A stretch of DNA of 55,297 nt from Prorocentrum cordatum (lineage: Eukaryota). This document shows, piece after piece, positions 3,002 through 41,084 of the stretch. The stretch's first letter is position 1. The number at the start of each line of letters is the position of its first letter. The notes beneath the pieces were generated by a model, which worked only from the letters and a program-made list of their open reading frames with translations, ran no database searches and was not told the DNA's origin. Where the stretch lies: the NCBI GenBank assembly GCA_963575745.1, contig CAUYUJ010000168.1:62001-117297 (forward strand), read 5' to 3'. The position numbers and the translations under genes are program-made.

Positions 3002-3754
3002 CCCAACCATCCTGTGGTGTTGGGCCCTCGTTTCGAAGAGACAGCGCCCAGCGTCACTCCTTCTCTCCTCCTCCCCCTCCTCCCTCCTCCCCCTCCTTGC
3101 GTCTGCCCTCCGCATGTCTGTGTTTCGACACACCCCTCACACATTTCGGGGCCCCATAGGCAGCTCCATCGAAGGCGCCAGTGGGAGGGTTCGCATGGCA
3201 CCACCGCGCCCATTTCGGCACAGCCCTCACACGCTTCGTGGCTCCGTAGGGGGCTCCACCGCAGGCCCCAGTGGGAGGTTCGCATGGCACAGCCGCCTAA
3301 TTGCGGCACACCTCTCGCACGCTTCGTGGCCCCATCAAGTGGCAGGGTTCGCATTGCACAGCTGCCCCGTTTCGGCACACTCCTCACACGTTTCGAGGCC
3401 CTATAGTGAGCTCTACCGAAGGCCCCCGTGGCAGGGTTCGCATGGCACCACCGCGCCCATGTCGGCACACTCCTCACACGCTTCGTGGCTCCGTAGGGGG
3501 CTCCACCGAAGGCCCCAGTGGCAGGGGTCGCATGGCACCACCCCGACCATTTCGGCACACCCTTCACACGTTTCGTGGCCCCATAAGGGGCTCCACCGCA
3601 TGCCCCAGTGGCAGGGTTCGCATATTGCCACCGTACCCACGTCCGCACACCACTCACACGTTTCGTGGCCCCATAAAGGGGGCTCCACCGAAGGCGGGGC
3701 TCACAACTGCGGCACTCACAACTGCATCTGGTTGAGTCCTTCGCCAGGATAATT
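3002..3754 (+). mobile_element. Family B Helentron/HINE-like element with 77-bp satellite
   Basis: 5' CCCAACCAT..GTTGGG hairpin, ~77-bp tandem units, and a 3' TGGTTGAG followed by a short stem-loop and TT. Same ends as 30162-31763. Confidence 0.7.
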
Positions 3755-11029: not shown

Positions 11030-11455
11030 TGCCATACCTACCATACCATATCAGACCTACCATACGATACATCACATACCATATTACACCAGATCTACCA
11101 TACCATACCATATTTACCATACCATACCATACCATATCACAGCACTCGTACCATGCCATACCATAATATTTATCAGGTTTCGTGTCCCTCCCACCCTTCC
11201 TCGGTGGCTCCGCCTGAGCGAGGAGAGTCGGCGAATACAATAGTATTTATCAGATTTCGTGCTCCTCCCACCCCTCCAGGGAGGCACCGCCTGAGCGATG
11301 AGGGTGTACGCATACCATACTATTTATAAGGTTTCGTGCCATCCCTCTTCTCCAAGAGGCCCCGCCTGAGCGAGGAAGGTATACGAATACCGTATCACTT
11401 ATCAGGTTTCGTGCCCCCTCCCACCCCTCCAGGGAGGCCCCGCCTGAGCGAGGGG
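11030..11455. repeat. (ATACC)n microsatellite followed by four ~76-bp units
   Basis: TTATCAGGTTTCGTG...CGCCTGAGCGAGG recurs at ~11170, 11247, 11323 and 11399. Confidence 0.75.
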
Positions 11456-11511
11456 ATAGAGCTGCAGCCGTATCTCCCTCGAGATATCACCCTTTTGGCG
11501 TGGCTCGGCAT

Positions 11512-13838
11512 CAGTTGTAAATAAAAAGAGGACGCTCTGCCACTTGGAGCCGCCCAGGGGCGATCTCGATGGCTTTTGGAAGCACGTTGGAACTATCTTG
11601 AACTATCTTGAGTTATATTGAACGATATTGGAGGCCATGTTTGCCTTTCTGGGACCCTCTTGAAACCATCCTTGGCCATCTTGGACGCTCTAACGCCTTG
11701 CGCGTCGCCCTGTCCTCGCTGGTAAACAGATCTACCTTACTTTTGTTCATTAACGTATACAGAAATACCATGTCATAGATGGTTGGTCGCTGGAAAGAAA
11801 GCGAGGTAGATTTGTTTACCAGCTGTTTTTGGGCAAAGTTGCATGCTGTTGCTTTATCCAAACACTCGGACGATGTGCTTGCCGCGGTGGCCGGCCTGCC
11901 TCCTCCCTCCCTCGTCGTCGTCGTCGTGACCATCGTCAGCGCATGTGTTCTTATCGCAATTGATTGGAGAGGCCTTACGGCCGGTGCCGCCGACCCTGGA
12001 CGTCGACGACGACGACGACGACGACGACGACAACGGCGGCCTATGTGTCCACAGTGCCCGCTCGTACGCTCTGCCACCTATGCGTGCGCGTGCGGCTCGC
12101 TGGCGTGCTCTGCCGTCAAGGACGTCAGAGTCATCATCCCCAATTCCCAGTAAGTTGAACGCTACAGTTGTAAATAAAAAGGGGACGCTCTGCCACTTGG
12201 AGCCGCCCAGGGGCGATCTCGATGGCTTTTGGAAGCACGTTGGAACTATCTTGAACGATCTTGAGTTATATTGAACGATATTGGAGGCCATGTTTGCCTT
12301 TCTGGGACCCTCTTGAAACCATCCTTGGCCATCTTGGACGCTCTAACGCCTTGCGCGTCGCCCTGTCCTCGCTGGTAAACAGATCTACCTTACTTTTGTT
12401 CATTACGTATACAGAAATACCATGTCATAGATGGTTGGTCGCTGGAAAGAAAGCGAGGTAGATTTGTTTACCAGCTGTTTTTGGGCAAAGTTGCATGCTG
12501 TTGCTTTATCCAAACACTCGGACGATGTGCTTGCCGCGGTGGCCGGCCTGCCTCCTCCCTCCCTCGTCGTCGTCGTCGTGACCATCGTCAGCGCATGTGT
12601 TCTTATCACAATTGATTGGAGAGGCCTTACGGCCGGTGCCGCCGACCCTGGACGTCGACGACGACGACGACGACGACGACGACAACGGCGGCCTATGTGT
12701 CCACAGTGCCCGCTCGTACGCTCTGCCACCTATGCGTGCACGTGCGGCTCGCTGGCGTGCTCTGCCGTCAAGGACGTCAGAGTCATCATCCCCAATTCCC
12801 AGTAAGTTGAACGCTACAGTTGTAAATAAAAAGGGGACGCTCTGCCACTTGGAGCCGCCCAGGGGCGATCTCGATGGCTTTTGGAAGCACGTTGGAACTA
12901 TCTTGAACGATCTTGAGTTATATTGAACGATATTGGAGGCCATGTTTGCCTTTCTGGGACCCTCTTGAAGCCATCCTTGGCCATCTTGGACGCTCTAACG
13001 CCTTGCGCGTCGCCCTGTCCTCGCTGGTAAACAGATCTACCTTACTTTTGTTCATTAACGTATACAGAAATACCATGTCATAGATGGTTGGTCGCTGGAA
13101 AGAAAGCGAGGTAGATTTGTTTACCAGCTGTTTTTGGGCAAAGTTGCATGCTGTTGCTTTATCGAAGCACTCGGACGATGTGCTTGCCGCGGTGGCCGGC
13201 CTGCCTCCTCCCTCCCTCATCGTCGTCGTCGTGACCGTCGTCAGCGCGTATGTTCTTGTCACAATTGATTGGAGAGGCCTTACGGCCGGTGCCGCCGACC
13301 CTGGACGTCGACGACGACACCGACGACGACGACAACGGCGGCCTATGTGTCCACAGTGCCCGCTCGTACGCTCTGCCACCTATGCGTGCACGTGCGGCTC
13401 GCTGGCGTGCTGTGCCGTCAAGGACGTCTGAGTCATCATCCCCAATTCCCAGTAAGTTGAACGCCACAATTGTAAATAAAAAGGGGACGCTCTGCCACTT
13501 GGAGCCGTCCTGGGGCGATCTTGATGGCTTTTGGAAGCACGTTGGAACTATCTTGAATTATCTTGAGTTTTATTGAACGATCGTGGAGGCCATGTCTGCC
13601 TCTCTGGGACCCTCTTGAAGCCATCTTTGGCCATCTTGGACGCTCTAACGCCTCGCGCGTCGCCCTGTCCTCGCTGGTAAACAGATCTACCTCACTTTTG
13701 TTCATTCACGAATACAAAAATACCATGTCATGGATGGTTGGTCCTTGGAACAGAAAGCGAGGTAGATTTGTTTACCAGCTGTTTTTGGGCAAAGTTGCAT
13801 GCTGTCGTTTTATCGAAGCACTCGGACGATGTGCTTGC
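11512..13838. repeat. Head-to-tail tandem array, ~652-bp unit (3 full units plus 1 partial)
   Basis: Unit starts CAGTTGTAAATAAAAAG at 11512, 12165 and 12817, and CAATTGTAAA at 13467. The ORF track shows identical translated ORFs at the same period. Confidence 0.95.
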
Positions 13839-14181
13839 TCGGATCTTCCCTTCAGTCCGTCTTCGAACTCTCCCCCAAACCCTCCCCCCTTCGATTCCGC
13901 CAACCGAGACAGGCGCCCGGAGCGAGACGCTGGCTCGAGCCGCCGAATTACGCTGTTGGCACGAGCCGCCTTGGCCTCGCGGGCGCCCCTCGCTCCATTC
14001 GACTCCAGATCTTCGGCGGGATGATTTATTCAATCTTGATATTTTTTACTTTTTCGGCCGCTGGGGGCAATCTTCGGCCCCCCGGGACCACGAACGGCTT
14101 GCCCCCCCCAAAAAAAAAAACATGGCAAGGATCCGTATATGTTGGGGCCGCGGAGTTTGAATCAATCAGATCGTCGGAGGT

Positions 14182-15300
14182 ATGGGACCACAAGATTCGG
14201 CTCAAGATCCGTCAATGTCATCGATGTTTCAAAATGCGACCTACAATCCAGAGAAGTGCGTCTATGTTGGTCGAGCCACTCGCGATGGTGAGCGCATGTG
14301 CTGGTCGGGGGCGAATGAAATTGCGGTGGCGGAGAAGGTCCGTAAATTTACAAAGACTCGGTCTCTGAAAGACATGCTGGCGCCGGGCCACAGTGTTAGG
14401 GAGTTGCCCAAATGTCTTCGAGAGGAGCCTCAAGATGTCGCAAAGAACCCTAGACGGACTCCGCCCAATGCCCGGGCGCAATTGGTCATCCGGTTGATGT
14501 GCTTGCTGTACGCTCGTGGAGCATGCGCTAAGATTCCATTGTTACGGGCTGCCGACATCGCTGGGCTGCGGCTTTCAAAGCAAGAGCTAGATGACAACGA
14601 GTATACTGGCTTGCATGCAATGAGGCATCTAATCGTTTTGCATCAATTATGGACACCTCGGCGCATGGCATCAGCGATGTCACACTTGAAAGCGCGCGGA
14701 AGCATGAAAGATGCACTGCAACGTATAAGCGCGCAGAGCAGCAAATCTCAGCAAACAGAAATCGACAGAGATGAAATAGCCATGTTGGTTCCTGGGTTAT
14801 GTCGACGCATCACCAAACCGAGCAACATAGTCAAATGGTTTGATACATACGAGAGTTGGGAAAAGCTTACCAGCGCAGCAGCTATGTGCTGCGAGTATTT
14901 TCACAACGGCCGTGGGACTATCACGACGCAGGCGTGTGATCTCATGGTATCGCAGCTTCGACCAGTTGACATGGTTGGTGACTACACTGCTCCTCATTGT
15001 GTTCGGAGTTTAGCTGCAATCTTCCATCGCAAGATAGCATTAGGTTCTGTATGGGGCAGCATGTTGATGAGCGATCGCAGTGTGGCTGCCATGCTTAAAG
15101 TGCTAGGTAATCCTTCCCCAGTGGAGCTGCTCGAGTGGTTGGGGCGGTCTGGTATTCGAAATACGCCTACTATTCCCGACGATGCTGGGGCGCTTGCTCT
15201 ATTGCTCTGCGAGACACATCAAGTCTATGCGAAATTGACGAAGAGAAGGTTTACCCTCTGTGCTTTCGTGAAGAAACTTGGAAGACTTTCGCCAAAGTGA
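14182..15300 (+). CDS. Intronless 372-aa hypothetical protein, possibly HhH DNA-glycosylase-fold / aGPT-Pplase-like; true start uncertain
   Basis: Only long ORF with non-repetitive, globular-looking composition, in DNA less GC-rich than its surroundings. Contains LRPVDMVGDYTA (HhH-like) and a C-terminal LLCETH. Confidence 0.6.
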   Translation: MGPQDSAQDPSMSSMFQNATYNPEKCVYVGRATRDGERMCWSGANEIAVAEKVRKFTKTRSLKDMLAPGHSVRELPKCLREEPQDVAKNPRRTPPNARAQLVIRLMCLLYARGACAKIPLLRAADIAGLRLSKQELDDNEYTGLHAMRHLIVLHQLWTPRRMASAMSHLKARGSMKDALQRISAQSSKSQQTEIDRDEIAMLVPGLCRRITKPSNIVKWFDTYESWEKLTSAAAMCCEYFHNGRGTITTQACDLMVSQLRPVDMVGDYTAPHCVRSLAAIFHRKIALGSVWGSMLMSDRSVAAMLKVLGNPSPVELLEWLGRSGIRNTPTIPDDAGALALLLCETHQVYAKLTKRRFTLCAFVKKLGRLSPK

Positions 15301-15360
15301 AAAAGTATTCGCTCAAGAACAAGGTTTATGAATCCGCCGCTGTTGTGCTGACGCATATGG

Positions 15361-15535
15361 GCATGCTGTAGTCTATCGAAGCATTCGGACGATGTGCTCG
15401 CCGCGGTGGCCGGCCTGCCTCCTCCCTCCCTTGTCGTTGTCGTCGTCGTGGTCATCGTCAGCGCATGTGTTCTTATCACAATTGATTGGAGAGGCTTTGC
15501 GGCCGGTGATTCCGACCCTGGACGTCGACGACGAT
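15361..15535. repeat. Resumption of the 652-bp unit downstream of the ORF
   Basis: GCATGCTGT...GGACGATGTGCTCGCCGCGGTGGCCGGCCTGCC...GACCCTGGACGTCGACGACG matches the interior of the unit. Confidence 0.9.
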
Positions 15536-15549
15536 GTCGGGGCCATGAC

Positions 15550-15895
15550 GCTATAGGGCTATAGGCCTATAGGGCTATGGGGCTATAGGGCTATGGGGCT
15601 GTAGGGCTATAGGGCTATTGGGCCATTGGGCGATTGGGCTATAAGGCTATAGGGCTAGGGCTATAGGGTCGTCGTCGTGGTCGTGGTCGTGGTCGTGGTC
15701 GCGGTCGTCGTCGTGTTCGTGGTCGCGGTCGTCGTCGTCGTCGTCGTTGTCGTTGTCGTCGTCGTCGTCGTGGTCGTGGTCGTGGTCGCGGTCGTCGTCG
15801 TCGTGGTCGTAGTCGCGGTCGTCGTCGTCGTCGTCGTCGTTGTCGTCGTCGTCGTTGTTGTCGTCGTCGTGGTCGTCGTCGCGGTCGTCGTCGGC
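15550..15895. repeat. (GGGCTATA)n then (GTC/GTG)n simple repeats
   Basis: Seen directly. Confidence 0.85.
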
Positions 15896-16756
15896 GTCGC
15901 GTCGGCGAGGAGAGCGCGGCGGGCGAACAGGTTGGCCTCGGGGGGGGGCCGTGAGCATATATACATGGCAGTGAGTTTTGGCAGCGGCCTTGTTTTCAGG
16001 GCCTGTGTCCGGGAGTGTTTCAGATTGTGTTTCAGGTTTCGTTTCAAATTATGTTTGAGGTCAGTGTTCAGGGCCCTTCTTCTTCGGCGGAGGTTGGCGG
16101 AAGTTTCGCGCGCCCGGCGGAGTTGCAACGGGGGGGGCCCCGCGGAAGCTGGCGTGAGCCGGAGGAAGCAGCACGAGAATACGCATTATCCATTGGCGCT
16201 GCCGCGCGATTCCGCCACCGCGCTCGGGCGGGCGCCCGCGGGGGGGGGGCAGGCGCGGAGTGGGGCCAGGAAGGGAGAATCCACGGAAGTTCTTACCCCT
16301 GCCCTGGTATTTGGAGGCATTTTGTGTTTGGAAGGCCAAAAAGACAGGGACTTGATGTTAAAAATAAGCCCCATCTTGGGATCGATGCGTCGGGGGGGCC
16401 TAATTATTGCTTCGCAAGGAGAGAGAGGGCCCGAGACACACCTACCGCTGCACGCGCGGTGGCGGATACCGAATGTCGGGGTCGCGCCACGCTCCTCGAG
16501 CGCCGCCCGCCCATGCGAGCACCGCCGCCGCCGCCGTTGCCGTGGCGCCGCCGCCGCCGGGTTTGCCGCCGCGACCGCCGCCACCGCCGTCGCGGTCGTC
16601 GTCGTCGTCGTCGTCGTCGTCGTCCGTCCCAGCTCGGCCGGCCCGCCGGCTCGGCTCGGCCCGGCCCGGCTCGGCCGGCGGTGGGGGAGGGAGGAGGAGT
16701 GGGACGATGGAACAGAACAGGAAGGAGGAGGAGGAGGAGGAGGAGGAGGAGAGGAG

Positions 16757-23822: not shown

Positions 23823-24615
23823 CCAGTGTAAACCCAAGGGGCATCAACGATGTTGGAATCCACCCTCCCTCCAAACTCCCGCTTCATAAGCCCCTACAAC
23901 GGTTCATTTCCATTGAAGGATCTGCCTCGTTGGAAGACAACCGTTTGAAGACCCGGAAGCAGGCCTAGACATTTTTCCCGGGATTCCAACGCCACGGATC
24001 AACTTGACTATTGCGTCTTGACGATCCTGGATCGTGCCAGAACGCCATCCTTGGGATTTCAACACCGCGAATCAACGTAACCGTTGCACCCGCAAAATCC
24101 TGAATCCTTCCAAAGCGCCATTTCTGGGACGTTGATCGTGGGAATCCGTGAAGCCCTTGCACACTTTAAAAACGAATGTACGTGGCGCTGAGGCGAGAAC
24201 GACATTTTGAAAAGGAACCGCCCCAATCCGTGGAACTCTTGCAATGTTTGAATACGAATGTGCGCGGCGCTAAGGCGAGAACCACATTTTGAAAACGGGT
24301 TATATTCGATCCGTGAAATTTTTGCAATTTTCTACAATGAATGTGCGCGGCGCTAAGGCGAGAACCTCATTTTGAAAACGGTTTATCCTCAATCCGCGAA
24401 GCCCTGGCAAATTTTAGAAACGAGTGTGCGCGGCGCTAAAGCGAGAGCCACATTTTGAAAACCACCCGCTTTCCATCTGTGAAGCTGTTGCCAATTTTCA
24501 AGCTTCAGAGTCATAAATGGTATGGTGAGGACATCTCAAGCGAAACGCCCGGCTCGCCCTAAAAACTGGCCTCGAGGTGCGACAGGGGAAAATTATCTAT
24601 AAGGAAAAGGACTGG
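23823..24615 (+). mobile_element. Family A element, complete copy inside (GAG)n
   Basis: Begins CCAGTGTAAACCC and ends GGAAAAGGACTGG. Internal ~83-bp units. GAG repeats on both sides. Confidence 0.8.
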
Positions 24616-29727: not shown

Positions 29728-32270
29728 CCAGTGTAAACCCAAGAGTCATCCACGACGTTGGAATTATCCCTCCCTCCAAGCTTCCTCTTCATAGGCCCCT
29801 ACGACGCTTCATTTCCATTGAGGGAACTGCCTCGCTGGAAGCCAACCGTTTGAAGACCTTGAAATCTGCCAACACCTCGTTCTCGGGATTTCCACGCCAC
29901 GGATCAGTCTGACTACTGCGTCCTGACGATCTGGGACTTCAACACCGCGAATTAACAAAACCTTGTACCCGCATGATCTTGAATCCTTCAAAAACACAAT
30001 TTCTGGCACGCTGACGCTAGAACCACATTTCGAAAACTACCCGCCTTCAATCCGTGAACCTCTTGCAAATTTTCGGAACGATGCGAATGCGCGCGACGCT
30101 GACGCGAGAACCACATTTTGAAAACCACCCGCCCTCAATCCGTGAAGCTCTCTCGATTTTTCCCAACCATCCTGTGGTGTTGGGTCCTCGTTTTGAAGAG
30201 ACGGTGCCCTCCGTTCCTCCTCCTCCTCCTCCTCCTCCTCCTCCTCCTCCTCCTCCTCCTCCTCCCCCTCCTCCCTCCATCGGCACACCCGTCACGCGTT
30301 TCGTGGCCCCATAAAAGGGGGCTCCACCGTAGGCCCAAATGGCTGCTCTCGCATGCGTCTCCCCCACCCGGGAGAACGTTTCGTGGCCCCATAGGGAGCT
30401 CCGCCGACGGCCCCAGTGGCTGCTCTCGCATGCGCCTCCCCCATCCAGGACAGCGTTTCGTGGCCTCATAGGGAGCTCCACCGAAGGCGCCAGTGGCTGC
30501 TCTCGCATGCGCCTCCACCCACCCAGGACAACGTTTCGTGGCCCCATAGGGAGCTCCACCGAAGGCCCCAATGGCTGCACTCACATGCGTCTCCCCCGCC
30601 CAAGACAGCGTTTCGTGGCCCAATAGGGAGCTCCACCGACGGCGCCAGTGGCTGCTCTCGCATGCGTCTCCCCCACCCAGGACAGCGTTTCGTGGCCCTG
30701 TAGGGAGCTCCACAGAAGGCGCCAATGATTGCTCTCGCATGCGTCTCCCCCACCCAGGACAGCGTTTCGTGGCCCCATAGGGAGCTCCACCGAAGGCGCC
30801 AGTGGCTGCTCTCGCATCCGTCTCCCCCACCCAGGACAACGCTTCGTGGCCCCATAGGGAGCTCCACCGAAGGCGCCGGTGGCTGCTCTCGCATGCGTCT
30901 CCCTCGCCCAGGACAGCGTTTCGTGGCCCCATAGGAAGCCCAACCGAAGGCCCGTGTGGCTGCTCTCGCATGCGTCTCCCCCGCCCAGGACAGCGTTTCG
31001 TGGTCGAAAGCCCAAGTGGCTGCTCTCGCATGCGTCTCCCCAACCTAGGACTGCGTTTCGTGGTCCCATAAGGAGTTCCACCGAAGGCCCCAGTGGCTGC
31101 TCTCGCATGCGTCTCCCCCGCCCAGGACAGCGTTTCGTGGCCCCATAGGGAGCTCCACCGAAGGCGCCAGTGGCTGCTCTCGCATGCGTCTCCCTCGCCC
31201 AGGACATGGTTTCGTGGCCCTATAGGGAGCTCCACCGACGGCGCCAGTGGCTGCTCTCGCATGCGTCTCCCCCGCCCAGGACAGCGTTTCGTGTCCCTAT
31301 AGGGAGCTCCACCGAAAGCCCCAGCTGCACTCGCATGCGTCTCCCCCATCCAGGACAGCGTTTCGTGGCCCCACAGGGAGCTCAACCGAAAACCCCAGTG
31401 GCGCAGTTCGCATGCGCCTCCACCCACCCAGGAAAACGTTTCGTGGCCACTATAGGGAGCTCCACCGAAGGCGCCAGTGGCTGCTCTCACATGCGTCTCC
31501 CCCGCCCAGGACAGCCTTTCGTGGCCCCACAGGGAGCTCAACCGAAAGCCCCAGTGGCGCAGTTCGCATGCGCCTCCACCCACCCAGGAAAGCGTTTCGT
31601 GGCCACTATAGGGAGCTCCACCGAAGGCCCCAGTGGCTGCACTCACATGCGTCTCCCCCGCCCAGGACAGCCTTTCGTGGCCCATAGGGATCTTCACCGA
31701 TTGCGATACTCACAACGACGGTACTCACAACTGCATGTGGTTGGGTCCTTCGCCAAGCGAATTACAACGGATGTGCGCGACGCTGACGCGAAAACCACAT
31801 TTTGAAAACCACCCGCCCTCAACCCGTGAAGCTCTTGCAAACTTTTAAAACAAATGTGCGCGGCGCTAACGCGAGAACCACATTTTGAAAACGACCGCCT
31901 TCAATCCGTGAAACTTTTGCAAAGTGTCAAAACGAATGTGCGCGGCGTTAATGCGAACACCACATTGCGAAAACCATCCGCCCTCAATCCGTGAAACCCT
32001 TCCAAAATCTTAGCACGAATGTGCGCGGCGCTAAAGCGAGAACCACATTTTGAAAACTACCCGCTTTCACTCCGTGAAGCGCTTGCGAATTTTTAAAGTG
32101 TGCGCGGCGCTAACGCGATAGCCACATTTAGAAAACGACCCGCCCTCCATCTGTGAAGCTGTTGTCATTTCAAGCTTCAAATCATAAATGAAGCGAATCG
32201 CCCGGCCCGCCCTGAAAAACTTGCCTTAAGGGTGCGACAGGGAACCGTCTTTTATAAGGAAAAGGAACGG
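29728..32270 (+). mobile_element. Family A element interrupted by a family B element
   Basis: Same termini as 23823-24615. The 83-bp satellite is split at 30161/31763. Confidence 0.8.
30162..31763 (+). mobile_element. Family B Helentron/HINE-like element with ~18 x 77-bp satellite units
   Basis: 5' TTTT|CCCAACCATCCTGTGGTGTTGGG; 3' GTGGTTGGG then TTCGC-CAA-GCGAA then TT. No TSD. Confidence 0.75.
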
Positions 32271-39717: not shown

Positions 39718-40420
39718 AGTTAGCCTGGCGATGGGCCCAACCACATGCAGCTGCGAGTGCCGCGCTGTGGGTACCATTCTCGGTGGAACACCCGATGGGG
39801 CCGCGAAGCGCGCGAGGGGCGCGCCGGAACGGGTGGCCCAGGCGCGCGCGGGAAGTTGCACTGGCGCCTTCGGCGGAGCTCCCTCTGGTGCAACACAGCG
39901 CGCGAGGGACGTGCCTGCATGGGCAAACGCAGCCACTGGGGCCTTCGGAAGAGCTCCCCGTGGGGCCACGAAGCGCGCGATGGGCGCGCCGAAATGGGCA
40001 TGGGGTGGGCGGGGGGCCGCGCGTGGGCATCGCCGCTGGGGCCTTCCGTGGGGCGCCACCAAACGAGCGAAGGGTGCGCCGACATGGGCATTGGGTGGGC
40101 GGGGGGCCGCATGTGGACATGGCCGCTGGGGCTCTCGGTGGAGCTCCCCGCGGGCCACGAAGCGCGTGGGAGCGCGCCGAAATGGGCGCGGCGCGGGCGG
40201 GGGCGGTGGCGGGGGGGGAGGGAGGGGGCGGGGCGCGTGCGGACATGGCCACTGGGGCCATCGTGGAGCTCCCAGTGGGGCCACGAGGTGCGCGAGGGGC
40301 CCGCCGAAACGGGCGCGCGGTGGGCAGGGGGCCGCGCGTGGACATGGCCGCTGAGGCCATCGGTGGAGCTCTCGGCTGGGCCGCGAAACGCATGAGGGGC
40401 GTGCCGAAATTGACATTCGG
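39718..40420 (-). mobile_element. Degenerate family B copy
   Basis: CCCAACCACATGCAG is the reverse complement of the family B 3' end, followed by degenerate 77-bp units. Confidence 0.6.
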
Positions 40421-41084
40421 TGGGCGGGGTGCCCATGCACAATGCAATCGCAGCGCCCGAGATGCTAAGCGCCAGCGCGCGTGCGCGCGCGCGCTCGCGG
40501 CGCGGTGCATGCATTTCTACACCGTGGGCGGCGATGTTAGGTCAAACGCCCAATGGTCAACACCCAATGTAAATCTTCATTCTCTGATCGGAAGGCGCGG
40601 TCATCTCCGCGTGGTGTAGATGACAACGTATGCGCGATGCAATGCCGCCGCGCGAGACGGCAGGCGCCCGCGCGCGCGCTCGCGGCGTGGCGTATGCGAT
40701 TCTGAACAATGGGTGGCGTTGCCCAATGGGAAACCCAATGGTTCAAACCCAACGTAAAATTTGTTTCTCGGAACGGAAGGCGCAGCCATCTGAGCGCAGC
40801 GCGTATGTGAAGGTATACGCAACGCAACGCCAGCGCGCGAGATGCCAGACACCCACGCGCGCGCGTGGCGTGGTGCATGCATGTCTATACCATGGGCGGC
40901 GATGTTAAATCGAAAACCCAATGGTCAAAACCCAATGTAAAATTTCATTCTCTGATCGGAAGGCGCGGCCATCTCAACGTGGTGTATATGAGACGTATAC
41001 GCAATGCAATGCCAACCCGCGAGATGGCAAGCGCCCGCGCGCGCGGCGTGGTGTATGCGTTTCTATGCATTGGGCTGCGATGTT

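Follow-up and report, generated by a model that had tools for sequence, protein, structure and literature searches.

Dinoflagellate DNA has a large share of its thymine replaced by 5-hydroxymethyluracil (5hmU). Does the open reading frame (ORF) at positions 14182-15300 of a 55,297-nucleotide stretch of the Prorocentrum cordatum genome (assembly GCA_963575745.1, contig CAUYUJ010000168.1, positions 62,001 to 117,297; here called the window) belong to a gene that acts on this base, and in which state is the gene preserved at this locus? A preliminary description, made from the sequence alone, had regarded the ORF as an orphan, uninterrupted and intronless gene that is carried by a mobile element and resembles the phage aGPT-Pplase proteins. 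We arrive, with modest confidence, at an account that retains only part of this view: what is seen at this locus is a decaying genomic copy of a nuclear gene that a protist expresses, and the domain encoded by the intact gene is a divergent eukaryotic branch of the aGPT-Pplase/amino acid:DNA transferase (AADT) proteins that is undetected by Pfam. The central features are:

14182..15300, + strand: the ORF as it stands, 372 amino acids, ended early by a frameshift
14449..15297, + strand: all-helical domain with helix-hairpin-helix (HhH)-glycosylase fold, residues 90-372 here and 90-407 in intact copies (predicted structure)
14977..14985, + strand: G266-D-Y268 hairpin motif, HhH-like, with the glycine and tyrosine conserved in the family
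15205..15213, + strand: L342-C343-E344, with the cysteine placed by register on the catalytic Cys247 of PaMx11 gp46

The gene is real and belongs to a conserved family. When 1.84 billion representatives were searched exhaustively with phmmer, 23 proteins were returned at E<=1e-3; six of these reached E<=1e-10, and E<=1e-30 was reached by none. With 23 matching representative clusters, the ORF can no longer be called an orphan. Two relatives were found by a word-index search: P0001 (407 amino acids, labelled Pyramimonas sp. CCMP1952 in EukProt) is 99% identical across the whole ORF, and P0002 (400 amino acids) is 38% identical; a second word-index search with the alignment A2 added nothing, as it returned only two proteins that were both already known. 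The 90% cluster of P0001 also contains P0146, a partial protein of 431 amino acids from Prorocentrum cordatum (NCBI, on a contig of 844 kb), whose first exon is encoded at window positions 13920-14006. A chance ORF was considered and is ruled out by the 99% identical protein, the conserved family and the confident fold. Named members are limited to three, i.e. the Pyramimonas label, Prorocentrum cordatum and the pelagophyte Chrysophaeum taylorii, and the presence of a member in the latter contradicts a family restricted to dinoflagellates. The cluster of P0001 (at least 90% identity) thus bears both the Pyramimonas sp. CCMP1952 and the Prorocentrum cordatum name, and foreign sequence may have entered one or the other data set. 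We favour the dinoflagellate, or a close relative, as the likely host, since the upstream exon found in the window is part of the Prorocentrum cordatum gene model.

Most members of the family are found on short marine contigs, and relatives are encoded at eight metagenome loci. The longest of these, L009, carries an 878-amino-acid long form whose neighbours code for an EF-hand-containing monomeric isocitrate dehydrogenase, for an RNase 2-5A/CCCH protein and for an ABC ATPase; this is an ordinary nuclear setting. Among viral contigs of IMG/VR, 28 pattern matches included no relative, and tblastn against 50,697 phage records gave a single match at E=3.

Conservation within the family is concentrated in a series of motifs that occur in the order KxP(L/V)xRAADI, HQLWTP, LVPGLC, VGxY..H.VRS, WG...MSD.SV, SP and D.G.L.L.LCE(T)H. 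The two sequence elements that had drawn attention to the ORF were located correctly: LRPVDMVGDYTA is translated exactly from positions 14956-14991 and DAGALALLLCETHQVY from 15181-15228, and Cys343 lies 77 residues beyond Gly266. Both elements are conserved among the homologues. Of 14 aligned sequences, 12 possess the Cys-Glu pair, and in the other two similarity is already lost upstream of it; G266, Y268, C343 and E344 are invariant in all seven sequences compared (7/7).

The fold of the protein is confidently predicted. AlphaFold2, provided with the family alignment, gives an all-helical model with pLDDT >90 over most of residues 90-407, and the window's own residues 90-372 reach a pLDDT of 88.7. 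When the models were compared with solved structures, a phage AADT ranked first in each search:

VIA-align, full-length model against 48,161 PDB representatives: top 8z2m (PaMx11 gp46, 5-PmdU glycinyltransferase), Z 9.3 (root-mean-square deviation, rmsd, 4.3), 218 aligned
VIA-align, domain model against 48,161 PDB representatives: top 8z2m, Z 8.7, 208 aligned
VIA-align, domain model, second look at Foldseek's top 1000 chains: top 8z2n (DNA complex), Z 8.8, 204 aligned

The HhH-glycosylase fold class accounts for 19 of the top 21 VIA-align rows of the full-length model. With Foldseek, neither BFVD nor PDB yielded a match at E<=0.001; seven of the 50 listed BFVD rows have a probability of at least 0.5, and the four named ones are all AADT or HMUDK-helical. 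The helical HhH-glycosylase-like fold suspected at the outset is well supported by the confident all-helical model and its best match to 8z2m.

The runners-up in the VIA-align comparison follow within 1 Z and consist of AGOG, OGG and DUF2419, after which come AlkA, EndoIII, Mag1, NTHL1, MutY, ROS1 and OGG1. This crowding is what would be expected if the domain were an ordinary HhH hydrolase, such as a glycosylase/lyase of the AGOG/OGG type, with 5hmU or oxidised bases as possible targets, or a nucleoside hydrolase similar to DUF2419/QNG1, that has only its fold in common with the AADTs. We consider such a hydrolase rather unlikely. The fold is common to AGOG, OGG, AlkA and EndoIII, but the ORF has no Pfam HhH-GPD match even at E<=10, a canonical GxG hairpin with the catalytic Lys/Asp signature was not identified, and the 28 language-model neighbours that bear a Pfam domain (see below) all belong to the aGPT-Pplase clan and none to HhH-GPD. 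Furthermore, the strongest conservation in the family is seen for the Cys-Glu pair on the presumed nucleophile helix of the AADTs and not for a glycosylase Lys/Asp pattern. Beyond Gly266, at a distance of 32 residues, lies D298, an acidic position (D or E among family members) that might correspond to the catalytic Asp of glycosylases. DUF2419 (QNG1, 7ugk/7u07), the queuine salvage enzyme, acts on a nucleotide and not on DNA; its rmsd to the model is high (6.5-7.8 Å), and no sequence or language-model link to it was detected.

Our assignment of the domain to the aGPT-Pplase branch is based on its neighbours in the language model, on the first rank among solved structures and on the motifs. In the ESM-Atlas, the neighbours of the whole protein score 0.86, whereas for residues 90-407 all 30 matches belong to clusters of viral or bacterial origin and the best of them scores 0.96, to be read against shuffled proteins, which reach 0.95 in about 1 of 100 cases, a figure valid for whole proteins and not for parts. 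PF18724 ADDT, PF18723 HMUDK_hel or PF18746 aGPT-Pplase3 is carried by 28 of these 30 neighbours. Together with the best solved structural match, 8z2m/8z2n, this upholds the proposed aGPT-Pplase link at the level of embedding and structure, but it finds no support in sequence profiles. Searching the ORF with the Pfam hidden Markov models (HMMs) gave no family at E<=10, which leaves ADDT, HMUDK_hel and aGPT-Pplase3 unmatched; none of the 19 family proteins scanned reached a curated Pfam cut-off, and none matched PF18724, PF18723 or PF18746 at E<=1, while M6 gp51 and gp55 were recovered as positive controls at 1.4e-46 and 8.1e-56, respectively. No family was found in PHROGs, and the PDB sequence search returned nothing. 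Profile-profile comparison by hhalign was likewise not significant, with a probability of 0.35% (E 0.17) for the phage ADDT, 0.66% (E 0.087) for 121 ADDT sequences and 0.49% for M6 gp55; the alignments used were shallow (Neff 3-4), and the ADDTs were limited to M6-like sequences with at least 53% identity. The stretch aligned by hhalign pairs the VGDY hairpin with its phage counterpart FGPW and leaves the Cys helices of both proteins unaligned.

How far, then, does the resemblance extend to the active site? In PaMx11 gp46, as described in the structural report, Cys247 is the nucleophile that attacks C6, the flipped thymine is clamped by Cys247 and Trp146, and a metal is held by Glu243 and Thr244 (PMC11472151). 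For M6 gp51 and ViI gp247, complete loss of activity is reported upon mutation of the conserved Cys or of the Glu near it (PMC8989533). In the two alignments of our domain model, the last aligned pairs are model residue 264 with chain residue 257 and 263 with 256, an offset of 7 in both cases, and a continuous predicted helix comprises model residues 246-265, including residue 254, which is Cys343. By this register, and within the same helix, Cys343 would fall on Cys247 of gp46. The positions equivalent to Glu243 and Thr244 (C-4 and C-3) are replaced by Ala/Thr and Leu in the family, while an invariant Glu (7/7) and a Thr sit directly after the cysteine, at C+1 and C+2. As judged from these residues, the family appears to retain the cysteine but not the metal site of clade 2.

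Additional differences separate the family from the clade-2 AADTs (PF18724 ADDT: PaMx11 gp46/PUGT, 8z2m/8z2n; M6 gp51; ViI gp247). The identity is approximately 10%, the phosphate-pocket residues are not recognisably kept when located by simple offset, the hosts are eukaryotic and the proteins contain an extra N-terminal region. Genes for a 5-hmdU DNA kinase (5-HMUDK), a pyridoxal-phosphate (PLP) enzyme or a radical S-adenosylmethionine (SAM) enzyme are not found nearby, neither among 111 ORFs of the window nor at the L009 locus.

In some respects the family is closer to the clade-1 protein M6 gp55 (HMUDK_hel, PF18723), with which it has in common the L-C-E on the C-terminal helix, where M6 gp51 has L-C-K, and a G-x-aromatic hairpin upstream; the language-model score for this group is 0.95. 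Unlike in the case of gp55, no HMM match and no associated kinase are seen, and gp55 keeps a Glu at C-4. The likeness could mean that the protein is an aGPT-Pplase member but not a transferase, serving instead as a base-flipping reader or accessory module that recruits factors to 5hmU-marked repeats, in the manner of the clade-1 helical domain of phage 5-hmdU DNA kinases. Such a role would fit the LCE triplet, which replaces the clade-2 pattern E-T-x-L-C-K, and the missing clade-2 Glu at C-4. It would also fit two reports: gp54 and gp51 are sufficient in M6 lysate reactions and gp55 is dispensable (PMC8989533), and 5hmU is enriched at, and thereby marks, repeats in Amphidinium (PMC11572971). 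Yet the near-invariant Cys-Glu pair argues for chemistry over binding alone, and ADDT clusters (0.96) score no lower in the language model than HMUDK_hel clusters (0.95). A partner kinase domain is neither fused nor adjacent, as none of 60 family-related proteins contains a Walker A motif and no kinase was seen among the window ORFs or the L009 neighbours. On balance, a pure reader is distinctly unlikely.

For the intact protein we therefore prefer a transferase-related enzyme of approximately 396-407 amino acids, in which a poorly conserved N-terminal region precedes the all-helical HhH DNA-glycosylase-fold domain of about 310 residues. By analogy with the AADTs, this protein would bind DNA and flip out a base derived from thymine, either 5hmU itself or one of its derivatives, and the thiolate of Cys343 may then attack C6, which would enable chemistry at the C5 substituent.

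The N-terminal region varies among the family members. In P0018, residues 1-110 show a sub-threshold AP2 match in two stretches (E 3.6e-4, 21.2 bits versus a cut-off of 33.3), and this N-terminus can be aligned by eye with those of P0002 and the window protein (14215-14400). Window residues 12-73 and the P0002 N-terminus match neither AP2 nor any other Pfam family at E<=10; the predicted model of the window protein contains two short strands and a helix in this region, at low confidence. Long forms of 650-880 amino acids (P0005, P0009, P0012 and P0180, the latter at L009:6249-8882) possess a Cys/His-rich N-terminal extension (C..C ... CW.F ... HCG.F) without a Pfam match, which may be a zinc-binding module. 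In P0013 and P0024, motifs of the C-terminal half (G.Y..H..R, LC[QH]) precede those of the N-terminal half (KAPLSNANDI, QLWTP), which points to circular permutation or else to an ORF that runs through gene copies arranged in tandem.

The window's own copy of the gene is damaged. Contigs from four public sequencing runs were compared with the window over positions 13780-15450, and three of the runs, X1, X2 and X6, represent three studies. The comparison and the homologues define the following elements:

15289..15297, + strand: sole remaining copy of a 9-nt direct repeat, site of a 34-nt deletion (contig comparison)
15291..15371, + strand: out-of-frame remnant that encodes the C-terminal 26 residues of the intact protein together with its true stop codon (translation, homologue tails)
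13943..14001, + strand: upstream leader exon of the X2 contig, without ATG, overlapping the first exon of P0146 (13920-14006)
14002..14189, + strand: 188-nt stretch skipped in the X2 contig, intron-like, with non-canonical ends AC..CC and a position ambiguous by 2 nt
14215..14217, + strand: likely true start, the ATG of Met12, the first in-frame ATG past the 14001->14190 joint, matching the P0002 N-terminus

Relative to the contigs of X1, X2 and X6, the window lacks 34 nt, corresponding to 25 letters and one copy of the 9-nt direct repeat. This deletion between direct repeats shifts the frame and causes the premature stop at 15298-15300, so that the last 26 codons are left out of frame and the ORF is not uninterrupted as it had appeared. 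The intact form is present in all three runs that cover the deletion site, and P0001, P0146 and P0002 extend at least 35 residues past the stop of the window with a conserved tail. Two letters, 14237 and 14440, are private to the window, and both changes are non-synonymous. The last two helices of the domain (371-385 and 397-403 in the full-length model) are missing and private substitutions are present; the window's own copy is probably an inactive pseudogene. Decay would accordingly comprise the 34-nt deletion with its frameshift and the two private amino acid changes. Overall, the gene occurs in at least three sequence variants, and the copies seen are separated by four substitutions (three non-synonymous, one synonymous), which are too few for a ratio of non-synonymous to synonymous rates (dN/dS).

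The 5' end of the ORF is revised as well. One X2 contig joins 14001 to 14190 and hence skips 188 nt including the ATG at 14182, which speaks against an intronless gene; the run type is not on record, and the skip may represent splicing or a DNA variant. If the joint is due to splicing, Met12 (ATG 14215) would be the real start, in agreement with the P0002 N-terminus. A C8-A11 homopolymer pair is located at 14105-14125 within the skipped stretch. No RNA holder is listed among the sequencing runs, and run X10, by guess an RNA run, provided one 172-nt contig (14430-14601); we take neither observation as evidence on expression.

The gene lies within a satellite array, the arrangement of which is as follows:

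11351..13838, no strand: 652-bp tandem satellite, about 3.8 units, resuming at 15361 (to 15540)
13839..15360, + strand: gene-bearing segment of 1522 nt that interrupts one (the last) unit of the 652-bp satellite
13797..13838, no strand: left copy of a 42-nt direct duplication of satellite sequence
15361..15401, no strand: right copy of the duplication, 88% identical, overlapping the stop codon of the intact frame and the three codons before it

This arrangement gives some substance to the idea that the gene is cargo of a mobile element inserted into the satellite: the 1522-nt segment splits a satellite unit, with 42 nt of the target directly duplicated on its two sides, unbroken units exist (an X1 contig joins 13836 to 15400), the G+C content of the ORF, also at third codon positions (GC3), is below that of the surroundings, and the gene is found in several variants. 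However, none of the 111 window ORFs contains a transposase, integrase or reverse transcriptase domain according to Pfam, and neither terminal inverted repeats nor long terminal repeats were found at the ends of the insert. There is no 3' poly(A) at the gene, and the search for the dinoflagellate spliced-leader motif gave no match at <=3 mismatches. For a target-site duplication, 42 nt is long, and the duplicated sequence overlaps the last codons of the gene itself. Two readings account equally for this picture: the 1522 nt were inserted, accompanied by a long duplication, or the 652-bp unit arose by loss of the gene from a tandem gene repeat that was longer. Since relatives are also missing from the viral contigs of IMG/VR and one relative is located among housekeeping genes, we consider mobile cargo very unlikely and no longer describe the gene as borne by a mobile element.

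Within the window, the ORF is distinguished by its composition. Its residue entropy of 4.15 is the highest among 163 stop-to-stop ORFs of at least 150 amino acids, but its length is unremarkable, as 36 ORFs reach at least 250 amino acids. The ORF is indeed less GC-rich than its surroundings, with a value of 0.512 (GC3 0.52) as opposed to 0.588 in the window as a whole; a value this low or lower occurs in 8.5% of 1119-bp windows. None of the 111 ORFs of at least 180 amino acids, this one included, reached a Pfam cut-off, and two showed sub-threshold low-complexity matches; Rfam gave no match in the whole window. The window is gene-poor and mostly made up of tandem repeats, with 51 Tandem Repeats Finder (TRF) rows of score >=200. 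Many 77-90-bp satellites recur at 3129-3695, 30296-31700 and 39958-40433, and an 83-bp repeat family is located at 11-228, 24143-24498 and 31762-32164. Downstream of the gene, positions 15540-15930 contain an 8-nt GGGCTATA-like microsatellite followed by a long GTC/GTG triplet array. The gene-bearing X2 contig extends about 184 nt past 15450, and the transcript or copy thus reaches into these repeats.

We read the family described here as a new and divergent eukaryotic member of an established superfamily. In the literature searched, no paper connected eukaryotic genes with aGPT-Pplase, AADT or enzymes of thymidine hypermodification; Iyer et al. 2013, who reportedly defined the aGPT-Pplase family, may already mention eukaryotic members. 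The dioxygenase that forms 5hmU was identified only in 2024, and the accessible portions of the report do not mention a 5hmU reader and refer to hypermodification in two reference-type mentions only (PMC11572971). A putative link of the family to 5hmU is attractive by analogy with the phage enzymes, and hints at an undescribed thymine chemistry in dinoflagellates. In its boldest form, which we put forward as decidedly tentative and unlikely as it stands, dinoflagellates and some other marine protists would possess a nuclear, Cys-dependent AADT relative that converts chromosomal 5hmU, or its phosphorylated form, into an undescribed hypermodified thymidine, or that covalently reads 5hmU at repeats. 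If true, this would be the first phage-type thymidine hypermodification pathway in a eukaryote, and a superfamily known from phages and bacteria would be extended into eukaryotes. A conserved eukaryotic family with the predicted fold and the key cysteine of the phage 5-(phospho)hydroxymethyluracil enzymes would provide a concrete candidate for the next step of 5hmU.
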